Assembly (NCBI RefSeq): GCF_058153355.1
Contig: NZ_CM177019.1
Direction: 5' to 3' (one strand)
Length of the DNA stretch: 64,000 nucleotides
Shown here: piece by piece, positions 6,896-39,757 of the stretch
Layout: every line of letters starts with the position of its first letter
How positions within the stretch are numbered: position 1 is the stretch's first letter
Position numbers and translations under genes: made by a program
The notes under the pieces: generated by a model
The model's database searches: none
What the model was told of the DNA's origin: nothing
Seen by the model: only the letters and a program-made list of their open reading frames with translations

Positions 6896-6904
6896 GTATT
6901 CTCC

Positions 6905-7495: not shown

Positions 7496-7514
7496 GCTAA
7501 TCCTTAAACCTTAA

Positions 7515-10832: not shown

Positions 10833-10881
10833 TTACTGGCGTCGCAGCAAGAATAGAGCTGCAACGCCTACACCGGACGAT

Positions 10882-16294: not shown

Positions 16295-17428
16295 TCAAAA
16301 CGAAGCTAATTGACCCTGAATCCAGATTTGTTGCACATGCAGTCCGCTATCCAGCGCAACGACGCTGGCGCGTTTGCCCGGTTTAAGTGATCCCAAAACA
16401 CCATCAACACCCAGCATTCGCGCCGGATGCAGCGACGCCATATGGATGGCTTCCGCTGGCGTTACGCCCGTCAGCTCGACCATATTGCGAACAGCCGCAT
16501 CAACAGACAGCGTACTGCCCGCCAGTCCACCGGACGCGGTACGGACAACGCCGTCGTGCATCTGCACCTCTTCACCACATAACGTATATTGACCATCCGG
16601 CATCCCGGCTGCCTGCATCGCGTCGGTGATCAGCACGATTCTCTCTTTCGCACAGCAACAACACAGCGACATCGCCGCCGGATGTACATGATGCCCATCG
16701 GCTATCAATTCCAGCCAGGCGCGCTTGTCCGTTAAACCCGCGCCAACCATTCCCGGTTCGCGGTGATGTAATCCTGTCATCCCGTTATAGCAATGCACCA
16801 GGCCGTCGGCACCAACATCAAATGCGGCGCGGGTTTGTTGCCAGGTTGCTGCGCTATGTCCCAGCATTACCCGCACGTTCTGCTGTTTAAGATGACGAAT
16901 GGCTTGTAACGCGCCCGTTTTTTCCGGTGCCAGCGCCACCACGCGCAAGGTATGCCGTGAAACAGCAATCAATTGATCCAGCTCGGCAATTTCCAGCTCG
17001 CGAAACAGCTCCGGCGGATGTGCGCCTTTATTCTGCGGCGTGAAGTACGGTCCTTCGAGATAACTCCCCAGCACTTGCGCACCAGGTCCACCGCGCTGGC
17101 AGCGTAGAGCAATACGTTCCAGCGCCGCATGAATGGTATTAAGCGGCGCGGTTACGGTAGTCGGCAACCAACTGCCGACACCTTCCCGTGCCTTGTGCAT
17201 TGCCAGCTTGTCGAGCACATCCGGCGCGTCATCCATAACATCAACGCCCGCACCACCGTGTACATGGGTATCGATATAAGCGGGGCAGAGCAGTTCCGCA
17301 TCGCGTTCAGCCACGCCCACTGGAATCGGTTCGATTGCTGCAATTACACCGTCAGCAATATGCAACTGATGATCATCAAGCCAGCCCTCCTCAGTCAGCA
17401 GCCTTCTGGCGCGCAGAACGTGTGTCAT
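16295..17428 (-). CDS. agaA: N-acetylgalactosamine-6-phosphate deacetylase AgaA (full length)
   Basis: ORF 16295-17449; start at MTHVLRARRLL; NagA-like amidohydrolase. Confidence 0.85.
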   Translation of the reverse strand: MTHVLRARRLLTEEGWLDDHQLHIADGVIAAIEPIPVGVAERDAELLCPAYIDTHVHGGAGVDVMDDAPDVLDKLAMHKAREGVGSWLPTTVTAPLNTIHAALERIALRCQRGGPGAQVLGSYLEGPYFTPQNKGAHPPELFRELEIAELDQLIAVSRHTLRVVALAPEKTGALQAIRHLKQQNVRVMLGHSAATWQQTRAAFDVGADGLVHCYNGMTGLHHREPGMVGAGLTDKRAWLELIADGHHVHPAAMSLCCCCAKERIVLITDAMQAAGMPDGQYTLCGEEVQMHDGVVRTASGGLAGSTLSVDAAVRNMVELTGVTPAEAIHMASLHPARMLGVDGVLGSLKPGKRASVVALDSGLHVQQIWIQGQLASF

Positions 17429-17859
17429 ATTCCTTCCTCGACCGGACATTCTTCATGGCAGCGGCCTAACTCGTCCACCAGACTGGTCAGCCCACGGTGT
17501 CCACACTCCAGCGCCTGTACACGGAATTCTTCACCGCTTAACCCTTCGCGCTCCAGCACCATTTCCAGTAACAGTTGCAAATTGGTGCCGGTGATCACTT
17601 CATAGCCCGGTTTTTGCATCGCCAGCGTTGAAGCCACGCGAAACGGTGTGCCGCCCAGCAAATCTGTCAGAAAAACAATGCCGTCTTCACAATCCAGTTT
17701 GGCAATGGCTTCTTCAAGCTGCGATGTAAGCAGCGCAGTGCTTGAGGTTTCCGGAAAATCAATGGCGATAAACTGCGACTGCTCGCCGAGGATTTGCTTC
17801 ATTGCTTTTTCCATGCCGCTGGCAAATCCGCCATGCCCTGTCAAAATAATACTTAACAT
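17425..17859 (-). CDS. agaF: PTS N-acetylgalactosamine EIIA AgaF
   Basis: 144 aa mannose-family IIA. Confidence 0.85.
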   Translation of the reverse strand: MLSIILTGHGGFASGMEKAMKQILGEQSQFIAIDFPETSSTALLTSQLEEAIAKLDCEDGIVFLTDLLGGTPFRVASTLAMQKPGYEVITGTNLQLLLEMVLEREGLSGEEFRVQALECGHRGLTSLVDELGRCHEECPVEEGI

Positions 17860-17876
17860 CTAATACCTCATTGTAT

Positions 17877-18761
17877 TTAAAGGAAATGACAGAATTTACC
17901 GACGATGCCAAGAACCACGGTAACCGCAATCAGGCGCAGCGGGCTCCAGCCGCGGCGTACCAGCCAGAACATGGTCAGGGTGTAGACCAGCGGTAAGAAG
18001 GCAGGCATCAGTTTGTCGATAACATCAGCCTGTAACTTAACCACTGCGTCGCCAGCGGTGATTTCCAGCGTGGTGCTTAAACGAACATAGGTTGCCACCA
18101 GCGCGCCGATTACCGTCATCCCAACGATTGACGCAGCATGGCCGACTTTTTTGGTATTCGCTTTAATGAGTGGAATCGCCGCCACGCCCATGCGGTAAGC
18201 ATAATGCGCCAGACCAAAACGCAGCCCCAGGTGTACCACGTTGAACAGCACAATAAAGACGACTGCGCCAAGAATAGAGCCTTGCAATGCCAGACTGGCA
18301 CCAATCCCGCCACAAATCGGCAGTAACGTTAGCCAGAACATGGCATCGCCAATCCCGCCGAGCGGCGCACCGACGGCAATTTTGGTGCTCTGAATACTGT
18401 TAACGTCCTGCTTAGAACGCTCCATCGCGAGGATAATGCCAATAACAAACGTCACCAGAAATGGATGGGTATTGAAGAAACCCATATGTCCCTTCATGGC
18501 GGGCGCCAGGTCGCGTTTATTAGTGTGGATCTTTTTCAGAGCAGGCAGCAGACCGTACAACCAGCCGGAAGCCTGCATACGCTCGTAGTTAAAAGAAGCT
18601 TGTAACAGCATGGAACGCCAGGCGACGCGGTTGATATCTTTTTTTGTTAGCTCCGCGCCAATGTTCTGATCTTCGTATACGTTTTCATTGACGCCTGTCA
18701 GTAGTGTCTCTTCATTTTCGCTGACGTTCGGCAGGGTGGTTTGATTAGATGCCATCTTCAA
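17877..18761 (-). CDS. agaE: PTS N-acetylgalactosamine EIID AgaE
   Basis: 294 aa mannose-family IID. Confidence 0.85.
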   Translation of the reverse strand: MKMASNQTTLPNVSENEETLLTGVNENVYEDQNIGAELTKKDINRVAWRSMLLQASFNYERMQASGWLYGLLPALKKIHTNKRDLAPAMKGHMGFFNTHPFLVTFVIGIILAMERSKQDVNSIQSTKIAVGAPLGGIGDAMFWLTLLPICGGIGASLALQGSILGAVVFIVLFNVVHLGLRFGLAHYAYRMGVAAIPLIKANTKKVGHAASIVGMTVIGALVATYVRLSTTLEITAGDAVVKLQADVIDKLMPAFLPLVYTLTMFWLVRRGWSPLRLIAVTVVLGIVGKFCHFL

Positions 18762-19524
18762 ATTCCTCTTTCTGTGCCGCAGGTTGAGTCGGTTCAGGAG
18801 ATTTACGCAGCAGGTCGATCAGCGCCATCGCCAGCGCGGCGGCAGCAATAGCCAGCACCGGTAACTTGAGCCAGGCTGCGGCAACGAAGCCCAGGATGAA
18901 GTAGGGGATATAGACGTTTTTCATCATGATTTTCAGCAGCACGGCAAAACCGATTGCTGGCATGATGCCGCCCGCGACGCCAAGGCCGTCGATTAACCGT
19001 TGCGGCAGGACATCAATGATGGTTTTTGCATGCTCCGCGCCGAAGTAGATAGGCAGGAAAGCGCAGAGAAAATAGAACGTGCCGAGTGCCAGCAATGCCA
19101 GATAGTTCACGCGTTCAATGCCGCGAGTATCGGCGTTCTCCGCCATCCGGTCGCAGCGGGACATCACGCCAGACATCACCGAGAACAGGAAGGTAATCCC
19201 CATCTGTACTGCGACAGCGAAAGGTACGGCGACACCGACCGCGACATCCGGTTTCACGCCAGTAGTAATGGCAAACGCCGTGCCGACGATAGTTCCGATA
19301 ATCACGTTAGGCGGCTGTGCGCCCGCCAGCGGTGCCAGCCCCATCCACACCAGTTCCAGCGTACCGCCGGTTAAAATACCGGTATGCAGATCGCCAAGCA
19401 CCAACCCAACTAACGGGCCGAGGACCACCGGGCGGTGCATATGGGTCAAGCCGTTAAACATATCCAGGCCAGCGATAAAGGCGATAATGCCCAACGCAAA
19501 TGCCTGCAACAGACTGATTTCCAT
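18745..19524 (-). CDS. agaW: PTS N-acetylgalactosamine EIIC AgaW (full length)
   Basis: 259 aa mannose-family IIC, not truncated. Confidence 0.85.
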   Translation of the reverse strand: MEISLLQAFALGIIAFIAGLDMFNGLTHMHRPVVLGPLVGLVLGDLHTGILTGGTLELVWMGLAPLAGAQPPNVIIGTIVGTAFAITTGVKPDVAVGVAVPFAVAVQMGITFLFSVMSGVMSRCDRMAENADTRGIERVNYLALLALGTFYFLCAFLPIYFGAEHAKTIIDVLPQRLIDGLGVAGGIMPAIGFAVLLKIMMKNVYIPYFILGFVAAAWLKLPVLAIAAAALAMALIDLLRKSPEPTQPAAQKEEFEDGI

Positions 19525-21559: not shown

Positions 21560-22369
21560 ATGAGTAATACCGACGCTTCAGGCGAGAAGCGAGTGACAGG
21601 CACCAGCGAGCGACGAGAACAAATCATTCAGCGCCTGCGACAGCAAGGGAGTGTGCAGGTTAACGATCTGTCGGCATTGTATGGCGTATCTACTGTGACG
21701 ATCCGCAACGATCTGGCGTTTCTGGAAAAGCAGGGGATCGCTGTGCGGGCCTATGGCGGCGCGTTGATCTGCGATAGCACGACGCCGTCAGTCGAGCCAT
21801 CAGTGGAAGATAAAAGCGCGCTGAACACTGCGATGAAATGCAGCGTTGCGAAAGCTGCCGTTGAGTTGATTCAGCCAGGTCATCGGGTGATCCTCGATTC
21901 CGGGACCACCACGTTTGAGATTGCTCGTCTGATGCGCAAGCACACTGACGTAATTGCGATGACCAATGGTATGAACGTAGCCAATGCACTGCTGGAAGCA
22001 GAAGGCGTTGAACTTCTTATGACCGGCGGGCATCTGCGGCGTCAGTCGCAATCTTTTTACGGCGATCAGGCTGAACAATCGCTGCAAAATTACCACTTCG
22101 ATATGCTGTTTCTTGGTGTAGATGCGATCGATCTGGAGCGCGGTGTCAGCACGCATAATGAAGATGAAGCCCGTTTAAACCGTCGGATGTGCGAAGTTGC
22201 GGAACGGATCATCGTGGTCACCGATTCCAGTAAGTTCAACCGTTCCAGTTTACATAAGATCATTGATACTCAACGTATCGACATGATCATTGTTGATGAA
22301 GGCATTCCTGCGGATAGTCTGGAAGGACTGCGAAAGGCTGGGGTTGAAGTGATTCTGGTCGGGGAGTGA
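21560..22369 (+). CDS. agaR: DeoR-family repressor AgaR
   Basis: 269 aa, N-terminal HTH plus DeoR C-terminal sugar-binding domain. Confidence 0.9.
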
Positions 22370-22901
22370 GAAATGGTGCCCGTAGCTCAACACGGATGTG
22401 TTCGGCGGGCATTGTTCACTGTCCTTTTACAGCCTGTTTTCTGCTCAAATTAGAAGCTTCAGCAAAGGTAATGCAAATGCATTATTAACAGCAGAAAGCG
22501 CCAGAACCAACGAAAAAAGAGAGCATGTTTCCCATTTTGCGAGGCGCTTTCCAAATCACCCGCTCAGTCCCCTCGCGTTGCAGTGCTAAAAGCACTATTT
22601 TGCAAATTTGTGACCTTCTTCACTCTCCCAAAAGGCGGTGATCTCACGGTGGGGATCCACTTTCTGCTTTCGCTTTTCTGCCGTTAGCACTCGCTATTTC
22701 GGCATCTCTTCTTTTCACTTTTTCAGTTTGTCATTTTCATTTGCGGTCAACCGAAAGTTCTGGAGTCGATTTTTCCAGGTTTCAACGCCGTTGTCGCGTT
22801 CACAAATTCACTTCTTTTCTTCTGATGTAATGCATTCAAAAGAAAATGAAAGCTGCAAAATGCAAGAATGCAACTAAATACTTTTTCAGGGAGCGATAAA
22901 C

Positions 22902-23672
22902 ATGCTAGATAGCCTAAGACGCCGCGAACAAATCATTGATTTGTTATGTGCCCAGGGAAGCGTACGCGTTGAGCCGCTCAGCATCCATTTTGGTGTCTCA
23001 TCGGTCACGATCCGCAATGACTTACGGTATCTGGAGCAAAAAGGTTGCGTCATGCGTTCCTATGGCGGTGCCGTGTTGAATCAACACTTTGCGCTCGACA
23101 GACCCTTGCAGGATAAAGATCGCCTTAATCGTGATGTTAAAGTGCGAATTGCCGAAAAAGCGGCCAGTTTTGTCAAAGATGGCGATACATTAATTATCGA
23201 TTCTGGTTCAACGACCACGCTAATTCCCGCTTCGCTCAAAGGGCGTCGGGATTTAGTCGTCATGACGAATGCCTTGAATATCGCCTGGGAAATGGCCAGT
23301 TTTGAACGGGTGGATGTTATGATCCTTGGTGGAAATGTTCGCCAGAGCGTCTACTCCCTGTATGGGCCTTCGGCAGAACAACAACTCCGGCAGTATCGCT
23401 TTGATAAGCTGTTTCTGGGCGTGGACGGCTTTTGCCTTGAAGCAGGGATTACCACGCCACATCCGGGTGAGGCACATCTGAACCAGGTGATGTGCCAGGT
23501 TGCGCAGGAAATTACTGTTGTCGCGGACTCCAGTAAATTTGGCCGCAAAAGCTTCTGTATGATCGGTGAAGTGAGCGAGATAGATCGACTGATTACCGAT
23601 AGCGGTATTCCGGAGAATTACAAAGCAGCATTAACGCAAATGGGTGTGGAAGTTGTGATTGCTGATGAGTGA
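22902..23672 (+). CDS. DeoR-family transcriptional regulator, AgaR paralogue (accessory)
   Basis: 256 aa; N-terminus RREQIIDLLCAQGSVRVEPLSIHFGVSSVTIRNDLRYLEQKG parallels AgaR; good RBS (GGGAG). Confidence 0.85.
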   Translation: MLDSLRRREQIIDLLCAQGSVRVEPLSIHFGVSSVTIRNDLRYLEQKGCVMRSYGGAVLNQHFALDRPLQDKDRLNRDVKVRIAEKAASFVKDGDTLIIDSGSTTTLIPASLKGRRDLVVMTNALNIAWEMASFERVDVMILGGNVRQSVYSLYGPSAEQQLRQYRFDKLFLGVDGFCLEAGITTPHPGEAHLNQVMCQVAQEITVVADSSKFGRKSFCMIGEVSEIDRLITDSGIPENYKAALTQMGVEVVIADE

Positions 23673-23676
23673 GAAA

Positions 23677-23708
23677 ATGTGGCTGGAGATAAACGTCGCC
23701 AGCCACAT
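23677..23708. terminator. Hairpin between convergent DeoR regulator and ROK kinase genes
   Basis: tgtggctgg...ccagccaca inverted repeat. Confidence 0.4.
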
Positions 23709-23716
23709 TACGTTAT

Positions 23717-24628
23717 TCAGGTTGCATGTTCGATTTGCAGCAACGCCGCGCCTCGTACACCGCTCGTTGCTCCGTGAATGGCAGAAAATACGCGCGCAGG
23801 TTCCAGTCCAGGAAGAAGATAACGCGTCATAGCTTTCGGCAATAACGTGTAAATTTCTTTGAAGTTAGACACACCGCCGCCAAGAACAAATGCATCTACG
23901 TCGAGAATATGCTGCAACTGTGCCAGCGTACAACCAACCATATCTATCCAGGCGCTAATGGTGGTGATGGCACTGGGAACGCCACGTTGATGATTTTCTA
24001 ACAATGTCTCCATAGTGATTTGCTCATCGCTGAAATGCTTATGTAACCAGAGCAAGCCAGGACCGGACTGGTAGCGTTCCAGGCACCCTTGCAAACCGCA
24101 GCCGCATTGTAATTCAGGCAGGTTATAGCGCCGCGTAAATGTCGCCGGGAGCGGTAAATGGCCAAACTCGCAGGCCATACGGTTACGGCCACGGTACAAC
24201 TGGCCATCAATAACTAATCCCCCGCCCATACCCGTGCCGATAATCGCGCCAAAGATCCGACTATATTGACGAGCTTGATCGGTATGCGCTTCTGATAGGG
24301 CGAAGCAGCAGCAGTCATTATCCATTATTACCGGGCGGTTAAGGCGATTTGCCAGATCGGTTAACACCTGGCGTCCGGTCAGGCAGGGAACGTTAGAAGA
24401 CAACAGTTTACCGGTGTGCCGATCCATAACGCCGGGCATCCCGATACCTATTTTGCCTTGCGTACCCGTGGCCCAGTCAGCGGTATCAATCAGAGACACA
24501 AATGTGGATAGAAAAAGCGCGTAATCCTGAACAGGCGTAGCTACCCGCTTGCGCCAGCAAATTTGTAAATCCTGATCAAAGGCGACTATCTCTGTTTTGG
24601 TTCCACCAATATCAACACCGTAAAACAT
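23717..24628 (-). CDS. ROK-family sugar kinase, NagK-like
   Basis: 303 aa; DIGGTK N-terminus and CGCG..C zinc motif as in N-acetylglucosamine kinase. Confidence 0.85.
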   Translation of the reverse strand: MFYGVDIGGTKTEIVAFDQDLQICWRKRVATPVQDYALFLSTFVSLIDTADWATGTQGKIGIGMPGVMDRHTGKLLSSNVPCLTGRQVLTDLANRLNRPVIMDNDCCCFALSEAHTDQARQYSRIFGAIIGTGMGGGLVIDGQLYRGRNRMACEFGHLPLPATFTRRYNLPELQCGCGLQGCLERYQSGPGLLWLHKHFSDEQITMETLLENHQRGVPSAITTISAWIDMVGCTLAQLQHILDVDAFVLGGGVSNFKEIYTLLPKAMTRYLLPGLEPARVFSAIHGATSGVRGAALLQIEHAT

Positions 24629-24646
24629 CGCTCATCTCCTTTGGTT

Positions 24647-25903
24647 TCACAGCACAACCAGGGTATTTTCCTTGCGAGCGCGTTCGGCGGCAAAGACCAT
24701 TAAATGACTTTCGAGCGATTCATCTGGTCCTGAAAGGATCATCGCTCGATCGTCAGCCATCACGGCATGGATAAAGCTGTCCATCAGATAGTAATCACCA
24801 CCACCGTGCCCTCCCATTTGGGTGTGAGTGCCTGCGTTTTTCTCTTCAACGGTGTAAATAGTTTCCTGGTCGGTGAGAAAATCAAAACACCGAATGGTGT
24901 TGCCATCGCCTTCCAGATAACCTTTCGAACCGAAAACTCGGGTTTTGCGATCCTCCATTTTCGTAAAGGCTGTCATTGTAAAAGTGACGCTCTGCTGATG
25001 CGCAAACTGCATGTTTACCACTTGATGATCAACAACATCGTTATCGCAGCAATAAACACAGCGACCATAGGGGCCGTCACGCAGGGCCTGACGAATATTC
25101 TCTTCAGTAGGATTTGGTGTTAACACGTGGCGAAAGTGAAACGTACATTTATGGGCTTCGCCAGCATAAATTTTGCATGCGGACCACGGGCAGGTCGCTT
25201 CTGCCTGGCAATCGAGACAGCGTTCGGCTGCGCCTTCAGGTTGGTTTTGTTTTACAAAATGGTTGAGCCCGCCAAATGAGCTAACGGTTTTACAGTTGTC
25301 TCCCATGATGTAGCGGATCCAGTCCAGATCGTGGCAGGACTTTTGTAACAACATAAATGATGATTCAGCCTCGTTGCGCCAGTTACCACGCACAAAAGAG
25401 TGTGCCTGGTGCCAGTAACCGACGGGTTCGAGATGCTGCATACTGATAATGTCGCCAATGATGCCGCTATCGAGTAAGAATTTGAGTTTTTGTGTATATC
25501 GGGTGTAACGAAGAACGTGTGCGACGGCTAATAAGACATTATTGCGTTTGACGGCATCAATGATAATGCGGCAATCGTGCTCTGTTGGCGCGAGCGGTTT
25601 TTCCAACAGAATGTGGTAACCGAGATCGGCAAAAGCGACGGCCGGATCTCTATGCATATTGTCTTGCGTACAAATAAGTACAGCATCAGCCATTTTTGGC
25701 CGAGCAGCAGCCTCTTTCCAGTTGCTAAAAATATTATCTGTCGGGATCGTATGCCGGGACACAACTTGCTCGCGGTAAGCCTCTCTAGGTTCAGCAACAC
25801 CTACCACTTGCATTCTGTCCGGATGCTCAAGGGCATAGCGGGAATATATTTCTCCACGTGCGCCTGCACCTATTACTAAAACAGTGACTTTATTTTTACT
25901 CAT
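24647..25903 (-). CDS. Gfo/Idh/MocA-family NAD(P)-dependent oxidoreductase with Cys-rich insert
   Basis: 418 aa; Rossmann N-terminus (VLVIGAGARG), EKP motif, Cys cluster CLDCQAEATCPWSACK...CVYCC. Confidence 0.8.
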   Translation of the reverse strand: MSKNKVTVLVIGAGARGEIYSRYALEHPDRMQVVGVAEPREAYREQVVSRHTIPTDNIFSNWKEAAARPKMADAVLICTQDNMHRDPAVAFADLGYHILLEKPLAPTEHDCRIIIDAVKRNNVLLAVAHVLRYTRYTQKLKFLLDSGIIGDIISMQHLEPVGYWHQAHSFVRGNWRNEAESSFMLLQKSCHDLDWIRYIMGDNCKTVSSFGGLNHFVKQNQPEGAAERCLDCQAEATCPWSACKIYAGEAHKCTFHFRHVLTPNPTEENIRQALRDGPYGRCVYCCDNDVVDHQVVNMQFAHQQSVTFTMTAFTKMEDRKTRVFGSKGYLEGDGNTIRCFDFLTDQETIYTVEEKNAGTHTQMGGHGGGDYYLMDSFIHAVMADDRAMILSGPDESLESHLMVFAAERARKENTLVVL

Positions 25904-25945
25904 ATAAAGAAATACCTTTCTGATAAATTCATCTTAATTGCTACG

Positions 25946-26704
25946 TTATAAATTACGAAAACTAACAAGATGAAATCCGTGTTTTTCAATCGCATATTTG
26001 AGTGACGGTGTAGTCAGAACCGTAAGTTCTTCCAGCCGTTGATAGCAGTAACTGCTCGACATTAAGTGGTTATCTACGAATCCAGGGTGACACATAATTT
26101 CCAGCGATTTTTCATCACGTTTTATGGCGCTATCGAGGAGTGATAAAAAAAAGTCTTCTGAAATATTATTATCGTAGAAATTACTGCTGAATCCCTCACT
26201 ACTTTTGGCATCCAGCGAATCGATTTTTTTCTCTCGCAGAACAGAATGGTCTATACGTAATGGTAAATTTTTCTCACGCGCGAACCGCGCGACAACGGGA
26301 TAAACCTGCGGGATCATATGAACGCTGTGATGGCTGTCTAAATGGGTGGGCTCCCGTTTAAATACATCAATAAAACGTTGATATTGAGAACTCAGTTCCT
26401 GTTCAATTTCACCCGTGTTTAATTGCCCTTGCTCCGCGACATCCCAGATCCATTTACCTAATTGGCCTGCGCGTACCAGCGAAGGCATATCCGTTAAGGC
26501 GGCGCCATAGCTCAAAACAAAATGTAACCCGACGCCGAGCTGTGGGGTTTCGGCACTTAAAGAGGCAGCATGATCAATTGCCGGAGCATTCATCATCGCA
26601 GTTGTTGAGCGAACGACACCATTTCGTACTGCCTCGATAATTCCATAATTAATACCTTTACTTAGTCCAAAGTCATCCGCATTCACAATTAATAAGCGTT
26701 GCAT
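25946..26704 (-). CDS. YdjC-family carbohydrate deacetylase (ChbG-like)
   Basis: 252 aa; NADDFG and HLDSHHxVH motifs. Confidence 0.85.
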   Translation of the reverse strand: MQRLLIVNADDFGLSKGINYGIIEAVRNGVVRSTTAMMNAPAIDHAASLSAETPQLGVGLHFVLSYGAALTDMPSLVRAGQLGKWIWDVAEQGQLNTGEIEQELSSQYQRFIDVFKREPTHLDSHHSVHMIPQVYPVVARFAREKNLPLRIDHSVLREKKIDSLDAKSSEGFSSNFYDNNISEDFFLSLLDSAIKRDEKSLEIMCHPGFVDNHLMSSSYCYQRLEELTVLTTPSLKYAIEKHGFHLVSFRNL

Positions 26705-26716
26705 AAGGCGTCCTTG

Positions 26717-28069
26717 TTATTGATGAGATTGGGTAAGTTCAGCAATGGTGCTGGAAAATTGAGGCAGATGTTTTTTATGGGCAATGATCAGTTCACGTAC
26801 TAATTTTTCAGCGTCGTTATCCGAGGTCATTAGCGGGTTAAGGCACAGAGCCAGCAGCGTATCGTTATAGTTACCACTTATTGCCGCCCGGGCTGCCGCA
26901 ATCTCAAAACATTTGATTGAATGAATGAGCCCCAGTACATTTTCGTCAAAATGAGTGAGACGCGGGTGGGGGGTAACACCGTTATTCCCCAGAATGCAGG
27001 TCATTTCAACGGTCCAGTCTTCAGGGATATTTTTTACACTGCCCTTGTGTGGAATATTAACGTAGTGTTCTGTTTGCGTGTCATTATAAATTGCATTAAT
27101 AACGGCACAGGCTGCATCTGAATAATACGCACCACCACGCAGATCCAGTTCTTCAGGTTTTGTATTTAGTTCTGGGTTCTTATACAGCTCAAATAATTTT
27201 CTCTCTAATGCCTGCACGACTTGTGCACGAACGCCATTTTTATAAAATTCCCCCATCTCAATAGCGAGCATTTCTTTATGTTTAAAATAGTAACGTAAGT
27301 AAGCACAGGGCAGGAGATTAAGTGCCCGAATTAAATTAGGATTGAAGGTTAAACTGTCAATATTTTTGACGGTACTTCCTTCAAGCAAACCTTCAACGAC
27401 GCCATCGAGCAATTCAGCAAAACGTGATTGTCCATTGACCCATACGTCTTTAAGAAAGACCATATGATTTAAGCCAAATATGTCTATTGAAAGATCATCG
27501 TCCGCGCCAAGTTTTAGGGCATTGCGAACGAAGCTCTTCATCCCAATAGGGACATTACAGACACCGATAAACCGTTTAAATTGGGTATGGCGGTACACGG
27601 CTTCAGTAACCATCCCGGCAGGATTGGTAAAATTAATAATCCAGGCATCAGGGCAAAGTTCCTCAACATCTTTGATAATATCAAAAACTACTGGAATGGT
27701 TCGTAACCCGTTGAATAAACCGCCCGCGCCATTGGTTTCTTGCCCGAGATATCCCTGACTTAGTGGAATCAACTCATCCATTTCCCGAGCTTTTAATTGC
27801 CCGACCCGAAATTGTGTGGTGACAAAGTGCGCGCCCTGTAATGCAGCGCGACGGTCAAGTGTTTTCACTATTTTTAACGGAATGCCAGCTTTTATCACCA
27901 TCCGCTGACAAAGGTCGAAAATAATGTCCAGCTTTTCTTTGCCTTCTTCAATATCAACTAACCATAATTCACTGACCGGTAATTCATCGTAGCGTTTTAT
28001 GAATCCTTCAAGGAGTTCTGGTGTATAGCTACTGCCACCGCCAATAGTAACGATTTTTAAGTTTTTCAT
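26717..28069 (-). CDS. Glycoside hydrolase family 4 6-phospho-beta-glucosidase (ChbF-like)
   Basis: 450 aa; strong similarity to ChbF by recall (IGGGSSYTPELLEGFIKRY, NFTNPAGMVTEA). Confidence 0.9.
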   Translation of the reverse strand: MKNLKIVTIGGGSSYTPELLEGFIKRYDELPVSELWLVDIEEGKEKLDIIFDLCQRMVIKAGIPLKIVKTLDRRAALQGAHFVTTQFRVGQLKAREMDELIPLSQGYLGQETNGAGGLFNGLRTIPVVFDIIKDVEELCPDAWIINFTNPAGMVTEAVYRHTQFKRFIGVCNVPIGMKSFVRNALKLGADDDLSIDIFGLNHMVFLKDVWVNGQSRFAELLDGVVEGLLEGSTVKNIDSLTFNPNLIRALNLLPCAYLRYYFKHKEMLAIEMGEFYKNGVRAQVVQALERKLFELYKNPELNTKPEELDLRGGAYYSDAACAVINAIYNDTQTEHYVNIPHKGSVKNIPEDWTVEMTCILGNNGVTPHPRLTHFDENVLGLIHSIKCFEIAAARAAISGNYNDTLLALCLNPLMTSDNDAEKLVRELIIAHKKHLPQFSSTIAELTQSHQ

Positions 28070-28145
28070 GTTACTTCCATACTCAATATTAAATTGACTT
28101 GTGATGCCATGGTTTATCTAAACGCTGGCATGATGAAGCGTGCTA

Positions 28146-29506
28146 TTAAAACTTTAATGCATTGGCAATGTCTTCTTCGCTTTCTTGTTTAATTATTTCA
28201 ACTTGTGCTTTGTTTGAGATAATGACAAAGGGAAGATAAACCATTGTGGCAACACCTAAGTTAAAGAGCGCCAGGAGTAATCCAGCAATGCTTCCATTCG
28301 AGCTAAAGAACGCATTGAGTCCAGGAGGCATGGTCCAGGGGGCAATATTTGTTGATGGCGGAATAATACCCATGTTATAGGCGATTAAGGTAATCCCGGC
28401 GAGAATGGGTTGAATCATCACAAACGGGATTAACATAATGGGGTTCATAATGATCGGCAAACCAAATAAAATAGGTTCGTTGATATTAAAGATACCAGAA
28501 GGTAACGCTAATTTAGCAACCTGACGATAATCTTCCCGGCGTGACGCAATGAAAATGGCGAAAATGAGTCCCAGCGTTGCCCCTGTTCCACCGAGGAACA
28601 CGTAAGCGTCAAGCATTGGCCCGGTCCAGAAATGGAAGGTTTTTCCTGCTTCCAGTGCCGCTTGTACTGAACCATATTGTGTATAGGTGGCGATATTCTC
28701 CAGTCCCCACGGACCCAACGTGCTGCTTTGCAACGCGGTTAATACTAAGCCGCCGTGGATACCAAAGAACCATAACAGGGAATTAAAGACAACGAATGTC
28801 CAGCCAACAATACCGCTCATTGACGTTAATGGCGTAGCCAGTGAGGTGATAATGACCTGATGGAAATTGGTGCCATATATCGACAATATCCCAGACAAAC
28901 TACCCATAATTAACAGGATGATAAACCCGGGCACCATTGCTGAGAATGAGCGTGATACTGCGGCCGGAACACTCGCGGGCAACCGAATCACCCAGTTGCG
29001 GCGGATAATAAAAGCGAAAATTTCCGCTACAACTAATCCAATGATCATACCAGACAGAATATTGGCGCCGCCTAACCAGTTTGCACCAATGACATTAGCG
29101 GTTTCTCCTGCCTTGAAGGGGGTGACAGTCATAAACGCTGCGACAGAGAGTAAGCCAACGGATAACGAATCAACTTTCCGTTCTTCGGCCAACCCCATCC
29201 CAATAAAAAAGGGGGTCATGAGTGACATAATGCCCAGCGTGCCATGATAAGCACTGTCACCGACGACGGTGAAGGCGCTTAAGGTTTTTATGGTCGATGG
29301 TTCCAGTCGGACGCCTAATGAATAAAAAAGGAGCCTTCGCCAAAATCTAAAAAAACGCTATTAATGAGGACAAATAACGTACCGGCTAACGTTAATGGCA
29401 TCATACGGATAAAACCGTTTTTTATTGCATTGACGTGAGGTTGTTTCCCTAATTTAACTGCAAAAGGAAGAATGAGTTTTTCAAGTAACGCCATCACTCC
29501 GGGCAT
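28146..29506 (-). pseudogene. PTS lactose/cellobiose-family EIIC (ChbC-like) split by a frameshift
   Basis: N-terminal 63 aa (29506-29315, ...[12 protein letters not shown]) and C-terminal 360 aa (from 29228) are in different frames; the second frame reads FYSLGVRLE... upstream to the junction. Confidence 0.75.
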
Positions 29507-29575
29507 AAAAATATCCTTATATACCGATTAATGTATCACTGCGACTTTGGTTTTATTAATATCCTGTTGCTATGG

Positions 29576-29893
29576 TTACTTTTGCTCTTTTTTTATTATG
29601 GCGATAGCTGATTTTAGAACACCTAAGCCATCAATTTTTCCATATAACATTGAATCAATAACTTCCACTGGCTTTCCTGGTAATAAGCTTTGGATCTCTG
29701 ATTGCATGTAAGCAATTTGAGGTCCCAATAATATAACATCGGCTTCCGGCCCTTTCTCTGCGGCAACAGATTCGGAGAATGCTTCGATAATTACTGGCAC
29801 ATCATATTTTATCGCCTGCACTTTCATTTTTGACACCAGCAGTGATGTTGACATTCCCGCTGAACAAAATAAGTATATTTTTTTCTTTTCCAT
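29576..29893 (-). CDS. PTS lactose/cellobiose-family EIIB (ChbB-like)
   Basis: ORF 29576-30109; start at [20 protein letters not shown] (phospho-Cys motif), ~105 aa. Confidence 0.85.
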
Positions 29894-30278
29894 AGGGACT
29901 CCAGATATATTACGTAATAATATATTTGTCATGCCATGAATGGCATATGAGGCGACTTTAATTAAAAAGGCACGGATGTTTATATTGATTTCCTGAATGT
30001 CGTCTTTTGGTATTAATCTCAAAAATTTCAGGAGCCATTGAATAATCTGGTTTATAGGATTGAATGTCAAGAGAGTGAAATTGTGGGCGTGTTGTAATAA
30101 AAATAGCACGGCTTTCGGTAGGTTTCTTTTTTAGCGGAATGAAAAGTACAGGCAAAATGGTAATTGAATAAATTAACGTTTTTTCAATAGATTACGTTTT
30201 TTCCTGCCTACAGGAATGAAAAAAACAACAATCTAAAAATACTTTAGATATGTGAGAGTTATCACTTACTTTTCGTGG

Positions 30279-30311
30279 GGAAAACGGGGAAACACAGTCT
30301 CCCCGTTTTCC
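30279..30311 (-). terminator. Stem-loop immediately downstream of garD
   Basis: ggaaaacgggga / tccccgttttcc perfect 12 bp inverted repeat. Confidence 0.4.
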
Positions 30312-30326
30312 GTTCATGCAAGGCCG

Positions 30327-31898
30327 TCAAGTCACCGGTGCCGGGTTAAACACCGCCAGTTGGTTATGCAGCCCCCATTGATCCGAGAAGGTTTTCTTCT
30401 TCCCGCTGGCGACGTCGAGAATAAAGTGGAACAGCTTCCAGCCCACTTCTTCTATGGTTTCTTCGCCGGTGGCGATGGTGCCTGCGTTGATATCCATTAA
30501 GTCAAACCAACGGTTTGCCAGTTCGGTGCGGGTTGCCATTTTAATGACGGGTACCGCCATCAGGCCGTACGGCGTACCACGGCCGGTCGTAAACACTTGC
30601 ACGGTGATACCCGAAGCCACCTGTTGCGTGCCACAGACAAAATCGCTGGCTGGCGTCGCGGCGTAAATTAATCCGCGTTTAGTCGGGCGTTGACCGGGCG
30701 ATAGCACTTCAACAATTGCGCTTTTACCCGATTTAGCAATGGAGCCGAGAGCCTTCTCCACTACGTTTGCCAGACCGCCTTTCTTGTTGCCCGGAGAAGG
30801 GTTGGCGCTGCGGTCGGTTTTTCCCATATTGAGATAGTTATCGTACCACTCCATCTCTTCCAGCAGACGCTTGCCGACCTCTTCGTTCACTGCGCGCGGC
30901 GTCAGCAGATGGATCGCGTCACGCACTTCTGTGACTTCTGAAAACATCACCGTTGCGCCGCAGCGCACCAGTAGATCAGACGCATACCCAACCGCCGGGT
31001 TTGCCGTTACGCCAGAAAACGCATCGCTGCCACCGCATTGCATGCCGACAACCAGTTCTGAAGCCGGACAGGTTTCTCGCTGACGTTGATTCAGTTTTTG
31101 TAGATGGCGTTCGGCGACCTGCAAAATATCCTCGACCATGGACTGAAAACCGACATGCTTTTCATCCTGCAAACTGACAATGCTGGCGCTTTCTACTGGA
31201 ATAGCTTGCACATCATCCGTTCCAGTCAGCAGGCGCTCAGGCTGCAACTTTTCACAACCCAGACCAATCACCATTACTTCGCCGCCAAAGTTAGGGTTCA
31301 GCGAAATATTGTGAATGGTACGGATAGGCACAACTGCCGCCGGTGCGTTAATCGCCACGCCACAACCGTACAAATGATTCAGCCCCACCACGCCATCGAC
31401 GTTCGGGTATTTCGGTAGCAGATCGCGTTCAATGATTTTTACTACGTAGTCCACCACGCCTGCCACACAGTGGACGCTGGTGGTGATGCCGAGCAGGTTT
31501 TTGGTGCCCACGCTGCCATCAGCATTGCGATAGCCCTCAAAGGTGTATCCTTCCAGCGGCGGTAAGGGTTCCGGGACTTTGGTTGCCAGTGGCAGCGTGT
31601 GTAACGGCGGCGCTTCCGGTAGTACAACCATTGATTCGTCGATCCAGCTTCCGCGTGGGATTGCGCGCACGGCGTAACCAATCACTTCGCCATAACGAAT
31701 AATTTCACCATTAGCCGGAATGTCCAGCAATGCGACTTTATGCCCCTGGGGAATATGTTCAATTAATTCCAGCCCATCCGGAAAACGCGTTCCTGCTTTC
31801 AGGCCATTATCATTAACAATAATTGCCACATTATCTGTGTCGTGAACTTTTATATAAAACGCAGTTGGCGTTTCTTGTCTGATTTCGATGTTGGCCAT
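30327..31898 (-). CDS. garD: Galactarate dehydratase GarD
   Basis: 523 aa, SAF + D-galactarate dehydratase domains. Confidence 0.9.
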
Positions 31899-35410: not shown

Positions 35411-36556
35411 ATGAAAATCGTAATCGCCCCAGACTCTTATAAAGAAAGTTTATCTGCCAGCGAGGTTGCGCAGGCGATAGAAAAAGGATTTCGGGAAATT
35501 TTTCCTGATGCACAGTATGTTTCCGTTCCGGTTGCCGACGGTGGTGAAGGAACGGTGGAAGCCATGATTGCAGCCACCCAGGGGGCTGAACGTCACGCCT
35601 GGGTTACAGGGCCGCTGGGCGAGAAAGTGAATGCCAGTTGGGGGATCTCCGGCGATGGCAAAACCGCGTTTATCGAAATGGCGGCGGCCAGTGGGCTGGA
35701 ACTGGTACCTGCGGAAAAACGCGATCCACTTGTGACCACTTCACGCGGTACTGGCGAGTTAATCCTGCAGGCGCTGGAGAGCGGCGCGACAAACATTATT
35801 ATCGGCATTGGCGGCAGCGCCACCAACGACGGCGGCGCAGGCATGGTGCAGGCGCTGGGGGCGAAATTATGCGATGCCAACGGCAATGAAATTGGTTTTG
35901 GCGGCGGTAGCCTTAATACTCTGAATGATATTGATATTTCCGGCCTCGATCCGCGCTTAAAAGATTGTGCTATTCGCGTCGCTTGTGATGTCACCAATCC
36001 GCTGGTGGGCGATAACGGCGCATCGCGCATCTTTGGCCCACAAAAGGGAGCCAGTGAAGCGATGATTGTCGAGCTGGACAATAACCTCTCTCACTATGCC
36101 GATGTCATTAAAAAAGCGCTGCATGTTGATGTGAAAGATGTCCCCGGCGCAGGAGCTGCGGGCGGTATGGGCGCGGCGCTGATGGCGTTTCTTGGTGCGG
36201 AACTGAAAAGTGGTATTGAAATCGTCACGACGGCGCTGAATCTGGAGGAACATATTCACGATTGTACGCTGGTGATCACCGGTGAAGGGCGTATTGACAG
36301 CCAGAGTATACACGGCAAGGTTCCGATTGGCGTCGCAAACGTGGCGAAAAAGTACCATAAACCGGTGATTGGCATTGCGGGTAGCCTGACCAATGATGTT
36401 GGCGTTGTACATCAGCATGGCATTGATGCGGTCTTCAGCGTATTGACCAGTATTGGTACGTTGGACGAAGCATTCCGCGGGGCTTATGACAATATTTACC
36501 GTGCTTCACGTAATATCGCCGCGACACTGGCGATTGGAATGCGCAACGCGGGGTGA
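35411..36556 (+). CDS. garK: Glycerate 2-kinase GarK
   Basis: ORF 35330-36556; start at MKIVIAPDSYKESL. Confidence 0.88.
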   Translation: MKIVIAPDSYKESLSASEVAQAIEKGFREIFPDAQYVSVPVADGGEGTVEAMIAATQGAERHAWVTGPLGEKVNASWGISGDGKTAFIEMAAASGLELVPAEKRDPLVTTSRGTGELILQALESGATNIIIGIGGSATNDGGAGMVQALGAKLCDANGNEIGFGGGSLNTLNDIDISGLDPRLKDCAIRVACDVTNPLVGDNGASRIFGPQKGASEAMIVELDNNLSHYADVIKKALHVDVKDVPGAGAAGGMGAALMAFLGAELKSGIEIVTTALNLEEHIHDCTLVITGEGRIDSQSIHGKVPIGVANVAKKYHKPVIGIAGSLTNDVGVVHQHGIDAVFSVLTSIGTLDEAFRGAYDNIYRASRNIAATLAIGMRNAG

Positions 36557-36588
36557 CAAGGGCGCGCAAACCCTCTATACTGCGCGCC

Positions 36589-36965
<377 letters not shown>

Positions 36966-36974
36966 ATTTTAACG

Positions 36975-37010
36975 AAAACCCGCCAGCGTAAACTGGCGGG
37001 TTTTTGCTTT
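36975..37010 (+). terminator. Rho-independent terminator of rnpB
   Basis: cccgccagcgtaaactggcggg hairpin followed by TTTTTGCTTTT. Confidence 0.85.
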
Positions 37011-37029
37011 TGAGAAGGGTGGTCGGAAA

Positions 37030-37125
37030 GATGAACGTCTTATCTGGCCTACAAAACAACGAAAATTCAATATATTGCACAGAGGCAATGTAGGCCTGAT
37101 AAGCGTAGCGCCTCAGGCAATTTTG
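37030..37125. repeat. REP elements
   Basis: cttatctggcctac ... gtaggcctgataagcg palindromic units. Confidence 0.75.
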
Positions 37126-37237
37126 TGTTTATCATCAGTCTCGGATCTGCTTCGGCAAGCTTTTACTTTTGGTGCAGACGGAAAGATGAACGAATATCTA
37201 AGCTATTAATAATAGACTTTGCAAGAAATCATTACAT

Positions 37238-38407
37238 TTATATTTCATTTAAAAGATCGTAATCATACGTATATTCTTTGCTAATAAAACGACACTCGTT
37301 GAAGCTAAATTCATCGTCTGAAAAGGAATTGTCAACAGAATCTCTCTCTTCCTCCAGGCTATTATCTGAAAGCAAGTCGTTTGAGTTAGTATAATCCAGG
37401 TTGTAATCGACAGTATAATTAATTTCTGGATCGGTTTGGTAATCATTTTTTTTGACGCAATCATATTCTTCAATAATTTTGTCGATATAATCATATGCTT
37501 TTTCTAATGAGAAGTTTTTCATCTCTGGTAATTTAACTTTGCTCAAATAATTATTAATTTTTGAGGGGTTTTTATATATGCTTTTTGTTAATTCTTTTTC
37601 TAATTTGTCTGTTATATTTGCTGTTGGTATGGATTTTATAATCGCATATCTCATGATTTTTAATTGATCTTCGGTTAAATCTCCAAGCTCATTTAAACAA
37701 CTTTCGACAAAGTTGATTTTTTCTCTGGAATAATCATCGCTGATACTTGTTAACGCTGGGGTGATTTTTAATAAAGAATTCCATGAGATAGTACCATTGT
37801 GTGTCGAACGCATAAAATTTATATTGTACATATTGGTTTTAGTAAACTTTGTTGCAAACAATGTAAAGGGATCTAAAGTCGCGTAAGCCATATGTTTATT
37901 TGAAAAATCATAACCAGTTAAATCGACGTTATGCAAGTCCAGATAGGATAAATCTATTACGTCGCCTGCTCCAGAGCTAAAGATTACATTTAGTCTTCTG
38001 ATTTCATTATGAATTTCCTTTAATGAACAATTTATGTTCATGATGTCTGTTGAAATTTTTTTGTTATTTAACGGTTCACAAATTATAAGTTCGCAAGTAT
38101 TGTCTGATCGTTGCGTTATTTGGGCATTATAACCTAAAAAGTCTATGCGAAGAGACGAGTCATTATAAAGTATTACATTTTTTAAGTATGCTAATTCTTG
38201 TTGAAAATCACCATCGATAATACATGTCCCACCAGGTTGCAACGCGCTGATTAACGTGACCATTTGTTTAGAAGTCTGTATTAGTTTTACTACACCTGGT
38301 GCTAGTGCTTTGAGGTCATTTATTATGGGGTTTTCAGGAAGGTCATTCATTTTTATACATACTAAATTATTACCTAAGTCATTACCTATTGATGAAACCG
38401 GGAACAT
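37238..38407 (-). CDS. yhaC: Uncharacterized protein YhaC (AT-rich; repeat-containing)
   Basis: 389 aa, N/D/Y-rich acidic C-terminus; low-GC gene. Confidence 0.75.
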   Translation of the reverse strand: MFPVSSIGNDLGNNLVCIKMNDLPENPIINDLKALAPGVVKLIQTSKQMVTLISALQPGGTCIIDGDFQQELAYLKNVILYNDSSLRIDFLGYNAQITQRSDNTCELIICEPLNNKKISTDIMNINCSLKEIHNEIRRLNVIFSSGAGDVIDLSYLDLHNVDLTGYDFSNKHMAYATLDPFTLFATKFTKTNMYNINFMRSTHNGTISWNSLLKITPALTSISDDYSREKINFVESCLNELGDLTEDQLKIMRYAIIKSIPTANITDKLEKELTKSIYKNPSKINNYLSKVKLPEMKNFSLEKAYDYIDKIIEEYDCVKKNDYQTDPEINYTVDYNLDYTNSNDLLSDNSLEEERDSVDNSFSDDEFSFNECRFISKEYTYDYDLLNEI

Positions 38408-38428
38408 TATTTTATCCTTTTTAAATAA

Positions 38429-38998
38429 TCAATGAGAATCATGATTAAAATGATCTGGTGAAAAAAAGAGAATTTGCCAACAATCTGAAACATTGTCAGT
38501 TTTATTAAAATGATTAAATTCCGTTAAGATAACTTCTTTTTGCGTGAACTTTGCGCAAAACTTAAAAATTGTCTCCTTGATACACTCCAGATCTTTTCTA
38601 TTGATGGCTGAACAAGTACATTTTTCGCCAAAAGGTGAAAATGTGCCTACATCTAAAGTTTGTATTATATAATCATCATTTACTCCTGTAGAAATATCTA
38701 TGATGAATGGACTTCTATTTTCCGGTTGGATTCGGATCATTACAGAAGAAACATCACCTTTATAGACATTCAATGCAGTAATCGCAGATAATATTCTCCG
38801 CAATTCATTGCTTATGCTGTAAATTTCATTAACGTCATTTGTCGATATAATCTCGGCAAATTTTATTTTTACCTTCCAATAATCAATGTTTCTATTATAA
38901 GTGTTAACAGTTTCGTACATTGGTGGTATCGAAGGGGGTAAAAAATGTGAAACCGAATAACCTTTCATTGATGCCTGCCTTGTCATCATGACAAACAA
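38429..38998 (-). CDS. yhaB: Uncharacterized protein YhaB
   Basis: 189 aa ORF directly downstream of yhaC, AT-rich; start uncertain. Confidence 0.65.
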   Translation of the reverse strand: MFVMMTRQASMKGYSVSHFLPPSIPPMYETVNTYNRNIDYWKVKIKFAEIISTNDVNEIYSISNELRRILSAITALNVYKGDVSSVMIRIQPENRSPFIIDISTGVNDDYIIQTLDVGTFSPFGEKCTCSAINRKDLECIKETIFKFCAKFTQKEVILTEFNHFNKTDNVSDCWQILFFSPDHFNHDSH

Positions 38999-39206
38999 TA
39001 ATCAATGCTTATTTTCCTTGCACGGTTCGCTCACAACTATCAAAAAACGCTCAATTACCCGGCATTACAGTCAACGAAGCAAAATTCTGTGGTCTACAAC
39101 GATGTAAAGCACAACGAAAATCCTCCTTGTTCTCTTATTCTGATCGTATAGCGATGAACATCAATTATTCGTTTTGTGATCATCAACACAAAATGCTATT
39201 TAGTAA

Positions 39207-39581
39207 CTATGGTGACAGTAGAAACGAGGGGAAACGATTGCATTCACAAAATGACGTCCTGTAAGAAGGGTGAAAGTTGATGTTAATCAATTGTTCGAGA
39301 TGATCAATATCTGTATTCGAAATTTTAAAACATTGATAAAATAAATGTTTGCCCTCCAACAAATAGCGAGAAAAAATGTGACGTGCCGCATTATTTATCG
39401 CTGAAAATGATTTATTTATAATAAAATTTGATAACTTGCTCATAAAATTTAACTCAAAATTTGCCTGGTAATTATCCGCTAATTGCTTGAAATATGGTCG
39501 CAGCTGCTTTTTTTTATTAACCACATAACGAATGATGTTATCGCCATAAAATATGGTTATCCCTGTCATTTTTTTTGACAA
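39207..39581 (-). CDS. tdcR: Putative tdc operon regulator TdcR (start uncertain)
   Basis: AT-rich ORF divergent from tdcA, position as recalled for tdcR. Confidence 0.5.
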   Translation of the reverse strand: MSKKMTGITIFYGDNIIRYVVNKKKQLRPYFKQLADNYQANFELNFMSKLSNFIINKSFSAINNAARHIFSRYLLEGKHLFYQCFKISNTDIDHLEQLININFHPSYRTSFCECNRFPSFLLSP

Positions 39582-39757
39582 AAATCAGGGTTTATGCTGA
39601 TTTATATACTTTAACTTATTGATATATAAGAATATTTAATTGATACAGTGATGTCCAAAAAAGTATTGAAAGTTAATTTGTGAGTGGTCGCACATATCCT
39701 GTTCATTTCATTTTGATACACTTCATGCCGCCAATGAGGTTATTAACGTAGGTAGTT

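Follow-up and report, generated by a model that had tools for sequence, protein, structure and literature searches.

The chb operon of Escherichia coli, located at osmE-katE, encodes enzymes IIB and IIC (EIIB and EIIC) of a phosphotransferase system (PTS), a glycoside hydrolase of family 4 (GH4) and a YdjC-type deacetylase, and has chbA (EIIA) and chbR (an AraC-type activator) between chbC and chbF. In the AgaR-controlled N-acetylgalactosamine (GalNAc) cluster of Shewanella, agaR-agaO-agaZSK-AII-P, the genes for a DeoR repressor of the AgaR type, a ROK kinase and a Gfo/Idh/MocA protein stand together; the role of the last of these, agaO, is given as unknown (PMC2996990). A third point of reference is the family GH109 of NAD+-dependent α-N-acetylgalactosaminidases. 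According to Teze 2020, as cited in PMC10755693, their catalytic acid/base sits in a 'conserved GGHGG loop'. Here, we describe a locus related to these systems. It lies between agaR and garD (positions 22370-30326) in a 64,000-nucleotide stretch of contig NZ_CM177019.1 (assembly GCF_058153355.1), hereafter called the window. We tentatively read this island as an accessory extension of the aga regulon that would have been built by a cassette swap and would serve a β-linked GalNAc-containing oligosaccharide; on sequence comparisons, we place this reading somewhat short of an even chance.

Gene organization and exchange of the transporter cassette

As the preliminary description of this DNA had stated, a regulator gene and a six-gene minus-strand operon lie between agaR (21560-22369, plus strand) and garD (30327-31898, minus strand), which was confirmed by the listing of open reading frames (ORFs) and by family scans. 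The operon begins with an EIIB gene of the Lac/Chb PTS family (29576-29893, 105 aa; model NF007796), whose end had been given differently before and is corrected here to 29893. It is followed by an EIIC pseudogene of the same family (28146-29506, in the pieces 28146-29228 and 29315-29506), a gene for a predicted NAD+/Mn2+-dependent GH4 6-phospho-β-glycosidase (26717-28069, 450 aa; assigned from ChbF similarity and PDB matches), a gene for a YdjC/ChbG-type carbohydrate deacetylase (25946-26704, 252 aa; model NF002559), gfo for a protein of the Gfo/Idh/MocA fold (24647-25903, 418 aa; ORF and family scans), and rok for a NagK-like ROK-family sugar kinase (23717-24628, 303 aa; best NCBIfam match PRK13310). 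On the plus strand, agaR2 (22902-23672) encodes an AgaR-type DeoR-family repressor of 256 aa. An inverted repeat between the convergent agaR2 and rok (23676-23709; 14-nt arms, 93% complementary, 6-nt loop) likely serves as a bidirectional terminator.

Relatives of the Gfo protein were searched in one genome per species. The closest ones (82-84% identity) belong to Escherichia sp. MOD1-EC7003 and to three Citrobacter, namely C. werkmanii and two Citrobacter sp. In the first of these, as well as in C. werkmanii and Citrobacter sp. Cu233, garD is followed by genes for a solute-binding protein (SBP), two permeases and an ATPase of a CUT1-type ATP-binding cassette (ABC) transporter, then by gfo, rok and, on the opposite strand, agaR2. 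The next genes are agaR and kbaZ in both Citrobacter, and the contig of Escherichia sp. MOD1-EC7003 stops just beyond agaR2. The shared proteins (Gfo, ROK and AgaR2) are 82-93% identical between the E. coli island and these Citrobacter and Escherichia sp. loci; for AgaR2 the values are 91-93%, and E. coli AgaR reaches only ~42-45%.

The island and the Escherichia sp. locus share 80.6% nucleotide identity from exactly 22489 to ~5 bp before the gfo ATG. Homology to the ABC version picks up again in the promoter, which puts the upstream limit of the swapped segment near 30024. This gap in homology between the gfo start and the promoter indicates that a segment of ~4.1 kb (~25908-30023) with genes resembling chbB-chbC-chbF-chbG took the place of the four ABC genes. 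The swap left the promoter, gfo, rok and agaR2 where they were. A 5' leader found in the PTS version only (29894-30023, minus strand) forms the upstream edge of the cassette, as homology to the promoters of the ABC version stops near 30024. The ABC version itself occurs in none of the 5426 complete E. coli genomes. Hence, the earlier view of a distinct block of chb paralogues in which a regulator, a kinase and an oxidoreductase had replaced chbA and chbR had to be abandoned, because those three genes and the promoter are common to the ABC version at the same locus. The locus is a clear example of sugar-operon evolution, in which an ABC importer and a PTS with GH4 and deacetylase were exchanged precisely between a retained promoter and the downstream enzymes.

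A GH109-like loop in the 418-aa protein and the accompanying kinase

The 418-aa protein has no signal peptide. Its family is highly conserved, with ~60% identity across Proteobacteria, Lentisphaerae, Anaerolineae and others, and a profile of the family-specific C-terminal domain collected 1698 clusters at 50% identity (E ≤ 1e-10). Of 32 loci, drawn from several phyla, 20 have the gene directly after CUT1 ABC permeases. A homologue of GH123 β-N-acetylgalactosaminidase is encoded beside gfo in Serratia, Cedecea and one Oscillospiraceae genome, and the neighbors of a Lentisphaerae homologue were efflux genes of the resistance-nodulation-division type, a context that was uninformative. The EKP lysine, H191 and a GGHGGGD loop at residues 364-370 were invariant in the family alignment. 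Furthermore, Cys229, Cys232, Cys238 and Cys282 form an invariant cluster across the family, together with Cys286, which suggests a metal site.

The protein thus combines the Gfo/Idh/MocA fold with the GGHGG loop that in GH109 carries the catalytic histidine. When a 48-residue profile of the loop was compared with all PDB sequences, it matched, apart from one spurious sequence, only AmGH109 (MGGHGGMDF, E 0.017) and E. meningosepticum NagA (GAGHGGMDY). A longer C-terminal profile weakly matched GH188, with its histidine aligned to H366, and both GH109 entries. From the GGHGG loop and the position behind ABC importers, we read the protein as a candidate cytoplasmic GH109-like NAD+-dependent glycosidase, a reading in which we have moderate confidence. 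In CAZy it may belong to GH109, GH177, GH179 or a new family. The loop and the family context make such a glycosidase more likely than the oxidoreductase proposed at first.

The alternative that survives best takes the 418-aa protein for a conventional dehydrogenase or epimerase acting on sugars, for example a 3- or 4-keto-forming one, that would turn an unusual aglycone into GalNAc or N-acetylglucosamine (GlcNAc) before phosphorylation. However, the protein is in many loci the sole enzyme behind an oligosaccharide ABC importer, where a glycosidase is usually found, and the GGHGG loop is common to GH109. In addition, its closest characterized sequence relatives, NanOx and YjhC, and its top fold match, GH188, are redox-neutral enzymes that cleave bonds. 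We therefore regard a dehydrogenase as somewhat unlikely. We found no characterized member of this family; the literature on Gfo/MocA proteins with galactosamine, ABC transporters or AgaR gave nothing useful, and no relevant literature was found for GH177. With the candidate assignment as a GH109-like cytoplasmic glycosidase, a widespread family (~1700 clusters at 50% identity) gains a function that can be tested.

The ROK protein scored 306.9 bits against the NagK model PRK13310 and so stayed below the cutoff of 380, and its best PDB matches were NagK proteins (E 1e-74). The rok gene also follows gfo in Citrobacter, Serratia and Cedecea. We propose that it may be a kinase for GalNAc or another N-acetylhexosamine (HexNAc).

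Promoters, regulator and connection to the aga genes

The agaR2 product scored 365.3 bits against the NCBIfam equivalog model NF040755 'AgaR', the cutoff of which is 260. The region in front of the gene (22489-22901, plus strand) comprises the left end of the backbone and a regulatory region with a cluster of AgaR-type motifs. It contains six copies of CTTTC/GAAAG in 413 bp, compared with 2.9 per kb over the whole window, and TTTCRTT is also present. Indeed, 22709-22898 aligns with the agaR2-agaR spacer of Citrobacter with the motifs conserved.

The promoter/operator region of the operon (30024-30326, minus strand) was carried over from the ABC version, as seen in a five-way alignment of the window, the E. 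coli genome GF4-3, two Citrobacter and Escherichia sp. By BLAST, the garD-EIIB spacer matched the garD-SBP spacer of Citrobacter with 72% identity over 126 nt (E 4e-13). The blocks conserved in the alignment are a -10 element GATTAT (30042-30047) and a -35 element TTGACA (30065-30070) with a spacing of 17 nt on the minus strand, AGAAACCTACCGAAAG (30112-30127), the TTTCRTT-type repeats TTTTCATTCC (30136-30146 and 30213-30225) and a predicted CRP-like site, AGTGATAACTCTCACA (30251-30266). The garD terminator hairpin lies at 30279-30311. A repeat search in the 30024-30326 region gave the repeats D1 and I15. The TTGACA-17-GATTAT site scored 10/12 in a promoter scan. Promoter and terminator scans of this kind returned no more sites than in shuffled sequence, and the site at 30070-30042 is the one supported, by its conservation across species.

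The counts of TTTCRTT and CTTTC/GAAAG peak at the agaR-kbaZ (agaZ) and agaS promoters of the window itself, and the motifs recur in both control regions of the island. In the operon promoter, TTTCRTT and GAAACC..CCGAAAG blocks are conserved.

The company of the genes points in the same direction. In Serratia and Cedecea, agaS and kbaY or kbaZ come directly after gfo-rok-agaR2, and in Photobacterium and Vibrio gfo-rok-agaR2 lies among kbaZ, agaS and genes of the aga PTS. In the window, the island adjoins kbaZ-agaVWEF-agaA-agaS-kbaY, and R32_14_1F, the closest relative, has the whole aga cluster. Positions 16853-19149 have no K-12 counterpart and fill the agaW-agaA deletion of K-12, leaving agaW-agaE-agaF-agaA intact; hence, the aga cluster of the window has its full length. 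The regulator, the motifs and the aga genes nearby are supportive of a link to GalNAc and fall short of proof. The N-acetylhexosamine-containing disaccharide assumed at first is still the most plausible class of substrate, and the AgaR model, the motifs and the company of agaS, kbaY and kbaZ now point to GalNAc in particular.

Relationship of the cassette to the chb operon

The claim that the four cassette products are paralogues of ChbB, ChbC, ChbF and ChbG was borne out on alignment, with identities to the E. coli proteins of 76%, 73% (intact form of EIIC), 75% and 56%, respectively. By BLAST, the island and the resident chb operon share 68.6% nucleotide identity in two pieces that skip chbA-chbR. 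The EIIB reached 190 bits against the ChbB model NF007796 (cutoff 157) and the YdjC protein 350.5 bits against the ChbG model NF002559 (cutoff 227), so that both passed. The GH4 protein matched the PDB 6-phospho-β-glucosidases 5C3M and 1S6Y with E 1e-151 or better, and its alignment with ChbF keeps IGGGSSYTPEL of the N-terminal NAD site as well as GVCNVP and GLNH of the Cys/His metal site. No PTS_IIA or AraC ORF was found in the island by the ORF list or the family scans, and the gap between the EIIC and GH4 genes is merely 77 bp; chbA and chbR are thus missing from the operon, as had been noted before. The region upstream of the EIIB gene has no similarity to the regions upstream of chbB in E. 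coli, Salmonella or Superficieibacter.

A complete EIIA-EIIB-EIIC phosphorelay is not encoded by the island, which has no EIIA gene and, in the window, a frameshifted EIIC gene. The canonical chb operon is also present in all three complete genomes that bear the island. ChbA is therefore available in these strains, and we infer that it could act as the EIIA in trans.

A donor of the cassette was not found: the nearest relatives of the YdjC (65-67%) and GH4 (79-80%) proteins are encoded in canonical chbBCARFG operons of Superficieibacter and Salmonella, and no GH4 relative outside the island exceeded 80% identity. Some Salmonella enterica have, between frdD and blc (positions 4589-9759 of that locus), a complete second operon of the chbBCARFG type, the ChbG of which is 67% identical to the YdjC protein of the island.

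This kinship raises the question of whether the island is a redundant second system for chitobiose or cellobiose, in which the ROK protein would act as NagK, and gfo and the AgaR-type control would be baggage of the landing locus. The 73-76% identity to ChbB, ChbC and ChbF, the passing of the ChbG and ChbB equivalog models, the gene names chbC and chbG given by PGAP, the closeness of the ROK protein to NagK, and the canonical chb operons around all of the nearest YdjC and GH4 relatives would be expected in such a case. However, the island has neither ChbR nor the chb promoter and uses a promoter that comes from the GalNAc-linked ABC version. Moreover, the Gfo and ROK proteins are under purifying selection (see below), all carriers own a chb operon, and the ChbG-like protein is just 56% identical to ChbG. 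A redundant chitobiose system is consequently unlikely in our judgment.

Proposed pathway

For the preferred reading, an extension of the aga regulon for a β-linked GalNAc-containing oligosaccharide, we infer the following substrate and order of steps. A β-linked HexNAc di- or oligosaccharide containing GalNAc would be taken up and phosphorylated on its non-reducing sugar by EIIC/EIIB, with the resident ChbA as the EIIA. Candidate substrates are GlcNAcβ1-3GalNAc (mucin core 3), GalNAcβ1-4GlcNAc, or a GalNAc glycoside with a β-HexNAc extension. The YdjC protein would then take off one acetyl group, and the GH4 enzyme would free a 6-phospho-amino sugar and leave the GalNAc-containing remainder. 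The GH109-like enzyme would release GalNAc from any residual glycoside, the ROK kinase would form GalNAc-6-P, and the products of the neighboring agaA, agaS and kbaYZ would complete the catabolism. GalNAc-6-P or GalN-6-P may lift the repression by AgaR2; AgaR2, perhaps AgaR, and CRP would control transcription.

The smallest departure from chb would be to retain GlcNAc as the glycone, for example in GlcNAcβ1-3GalNAc; a GalNAc glycone (LacdiNAc, GalNAcβ-Gal) would be the main variant. In this variant, with substrates such as GalNAcβ1-4GlcNAc or GalNAcβ1-3/4Gal, the PTS would phosphorylate GalNAc, the YdjC protein would make GalN-6-P-β-X, and the GH4 enzyme would hand GalN-6-P directly to AgaS, leaving the aglycone to the kinase. 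The AgaR-type regulation and the adjacent aga genes are consistent with this course, the GH123 genes found with the ABC version in Serratia, Cedecea and the Oscillospiraceae genome suggest substrates terminated by β-GalNAc, and a NagK-like kinase would fit a GlcNAc aglycone. It is nevertheless improbable, since EIIC, YdjC and GH4 must all have shifted from the gluco- to the galacto-configuration despite 73-75% identity to ChbC and ChbF, and the Gfo protein is left without a role.

Several observations weigh against the extension of the aga regulon as set out above. For the 418-aa protein, the loop match to GH109 is short and, at E 0.017, marginally significant; outside the loop, the C-terminal domain has no sequence similarity to GH109, and a search of the PDB with this domain alone gave no matches. 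The invariant Cys cluster has no mention in the GH109 or GH188 literature examined. A second glycosidase besides GH4 is needed only if the substrate exceeds a disaccharide or is a glycoside. As for the regulation, CTTTC/GAAAG and TTTCRTT are what we take to be the AgaR operator consensus, which limits the support from these motifs, and the operon promoter has one exact CTTTC copy in 433 bp. The island has no EIIA gene of its own, and the inducer of chbA is chitobiose and not GalNAc. At 73-76% identity to ChbB, ChbC and ChbF, the cassette could take chitobiose or cellobiose. Finally, we found no literature on the operon or on an ABC-type sibling with a known substrate.

A wider form of the hypothesis is that the 418-aa protein represents a large family of GH109-related cytoplasmic NAD+-dependent glycosidases that release GalNAc or other sugars from oligosaccharides imported by ABC or PTS transporters, and that the ABC-to-PTS swap under an unchanged promoter gave E. 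coli access to GalNAc disaccharides of host mucin, core 3 among them; this we consider possible and rather doubtful. If the extension of the aga regulon is correct, glycans of the host or the diet that contain GalNAc may serve as nutrients for some E. coli associated with livestock and birds, whereas K-12-like strains cannot use them.

Distribution, selection and history of the locus

A comparison with E. coli genomes, which had been recommended earlier, showed that the island region is rare. It was present in 3 of 5426 complete genomes, namely R32_14_1F (goat), EC42405 (bovine) and GF4-3 (guinea fowl), with 99.7%, 99.6% and 92.4% identity to the window region, respectively. The assembly index lists the identical Gfo protein in 65 blocks, and all of the 24 contigs examined share the same arrangement.

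The EIIC break corresponds to one base lost from a homopolymer, A6 at 29324-29329, where R32_14_1F, EC42405 and GF4-3 have A7 in the alignment. The ORF of the window is split into 63 aa and 360 aa, and the intact protein has 453 aa in the three relatives and in every other contig examined that bears this Gfo protein. The frameshift reported at the outset is thus a true single-base deletion relative to three intact alleles; it could be recent or a sequencing error. Uptake should be blocked in the source strain unless the homopolymer was misread.

We compared the window/R32 allele with that of GF4-3. The ratio of nonsynonymous to synonymous substitution rates (dN/dS) was 0.015-0.15 for all seven island genes, including 0.08 for agaR2 and 0.08 for the ROK gene, at dS values of 0.11-0.62; these ratios indicate that the genes are maintained by selection. 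The flanking agaR and garD had a dS of 0.12-0.16. For gfo, ydjC and the EIIB gene, dS was 0.37-0.62, whereas the remaining island genes and the flanks fell within 0.11-0.22, which suggests a mosaic history with recombination with unsampled alleles within the island. That the island is a decaying remnant, non-functional because EIIA and ChbR are missing and EIIC is frameshifted, and heading for loss as in the other ~99.9% of E. coli, would agree with the window frameshift, the missing EIIA gene and the 3 carriers among 5426 complete genomes, and is very unlikely in view of the intact genes in R32_14_1F, EC42405, GF4-3 and the other contigs examined, the low dN/dS over substantial divergence, and a one-base homopolymer change of the kind described above.

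The gene order in K-12 is garD-prlF-yhaV-agaR, which agrees with the toxin-antitoxin pair placed there by the preliminary description. In GF4-3, however, prlF, a yhaV pseudogene and the island lie side by side; therefore, the island is not an alternative to the pair and does not sit in its place, as had been supposed. It is flanked by the promoter of prlF on one side and the stop codon of garD on the other. An 84-bp relic of the prlF 5' part, with start codon and promoter, remains in the window (22405-22488) and is 92.9% identical to positions 4001-4084 of the K-12 locus. The prlF-yhaV deletion in the window lineage joins two GCGGGCAT microhomologies, which are located at the start codon of prlF and just past the stop of yhaV. 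The loss of the toxin-antitoxin pair in this lineage is an event separate from the island. The garD-agaR site accordingly reflects several independent events (toxin-antitoxin loss, operon loss and cassette swap) and not a single insertion.

We found no ORF for an integrase or insertion sequence and no terminal repeats. The region likewise gave no match to a tRNA or to an RNA family, and the island and its 130-nt leader contain no Rfam family; the GC content of the island is mildly lower, at 36-50%. The junctions are indeed free of insertion sequences, integrases and terminal repeats, as had been stated, but not of any scar, given the prlF relic. A local import tract around the island was considered and rejected, because the whole window is ~94-98% identical to K-12 MG1655; this places the source strain in a divergent lineage of E. 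coli and indicates that the flanks are not locally unusual. The flanks of GF4-3 are K-12-like (~98.4%). Also dropped was the idea that 22520-22548, which by eye resembles the K-12 garD terminator, is a degenerate relic of it, since the local alignment stops short and the same sequence is backbone in Escherichia sp.

Other features of the window

At ~10826-10925, rsmI abuts agaI, as in R32_14_1F, and the yraHIJK fimbrial operon that intervenes in K-12 is absent. Positions 36000-40000, on the yhaC/yhaB side of rnpB (36589-36965), are ~87% identical to K-12, far under the average of the window. A tandem element of ~160 nt is present in two copies (55837-55997 and 56015-56174), each with a match to Rfam ES036 (CssrF; 55887-55927 and 56064-56104), and the copies are 87-89% identical to the single K-12 element near rnpB. 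The interval 60817-62057 beside exuR, the place of exuT in K-12, holds two ORFs, one resembling a fimbrial chaperone (236 aa) and one a pilin (166 aa), possibly a further accessory insertion. On the minus strand, 6182-6253 matched Rfam naRNA4 (CssrE, a nucleoid-associated RNA derived from repetitive extragenic palindromic elements).

Comparison with known systems

The island and the chb operon have the EIIB, EIIC, GH4 and YdjC genes in the same order, and the phosphorylation site of EIIB (Cys10 in the island) is conserved. The two differ in that the island lacks the chbA and chbR genes found between chbC and chbF, has Gfo/Idh/MocA and ROK genes downstream, and lies beside aga. Furthermore, its promoter is unrelated to that of chb and is homologous to an AgaR/CRP-type promoter.

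The ABC version of C. werkmanii and Escherichia sp. MOD1-EC7003 shares gfo-rok-agaR2, the position between garD and agaR, and the promoter blocks with the island. In contrast, uptake in this version, which also occurs in Serratia, Cedecea and Photobacterium, depends on an SBP, two permeases and an ATPase, without GH4 or YdjC, and some of its members add a GH123 protein that the island does not have.

GH109, represented by E. meningosepticum NagA and Akkermansia AmGH109A, and related to GH188, GH177 and GH179, has the fold, the EKP lysine, the active-site His and the GGHGG(G/M)D(Y/F) loop in common with the island protein. The latter differs by its predicted cytoplasmic location, its extra invariant Cys cluster and the absence of significant similarity beyond the Rossmann domain and the loop. 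In the Shewanella aga cluster, AgaO is described as a secreted lipoprotein, unlike the Gfo protein of the island with its missing signal peptide; uptake in aga systems is by a permease or a mannose-type Aga PTS, whereas the island has a Lac/Chb-type PTS.

Taken together, the operon resembles chb in uptake and first cleavage, and aga in regulation and placement. The kinds of components are already known. Of most interest here is the precise swap of a transporter cassette under a conserved promoter, together with an uncharacterized family that appears to be GH109-like.

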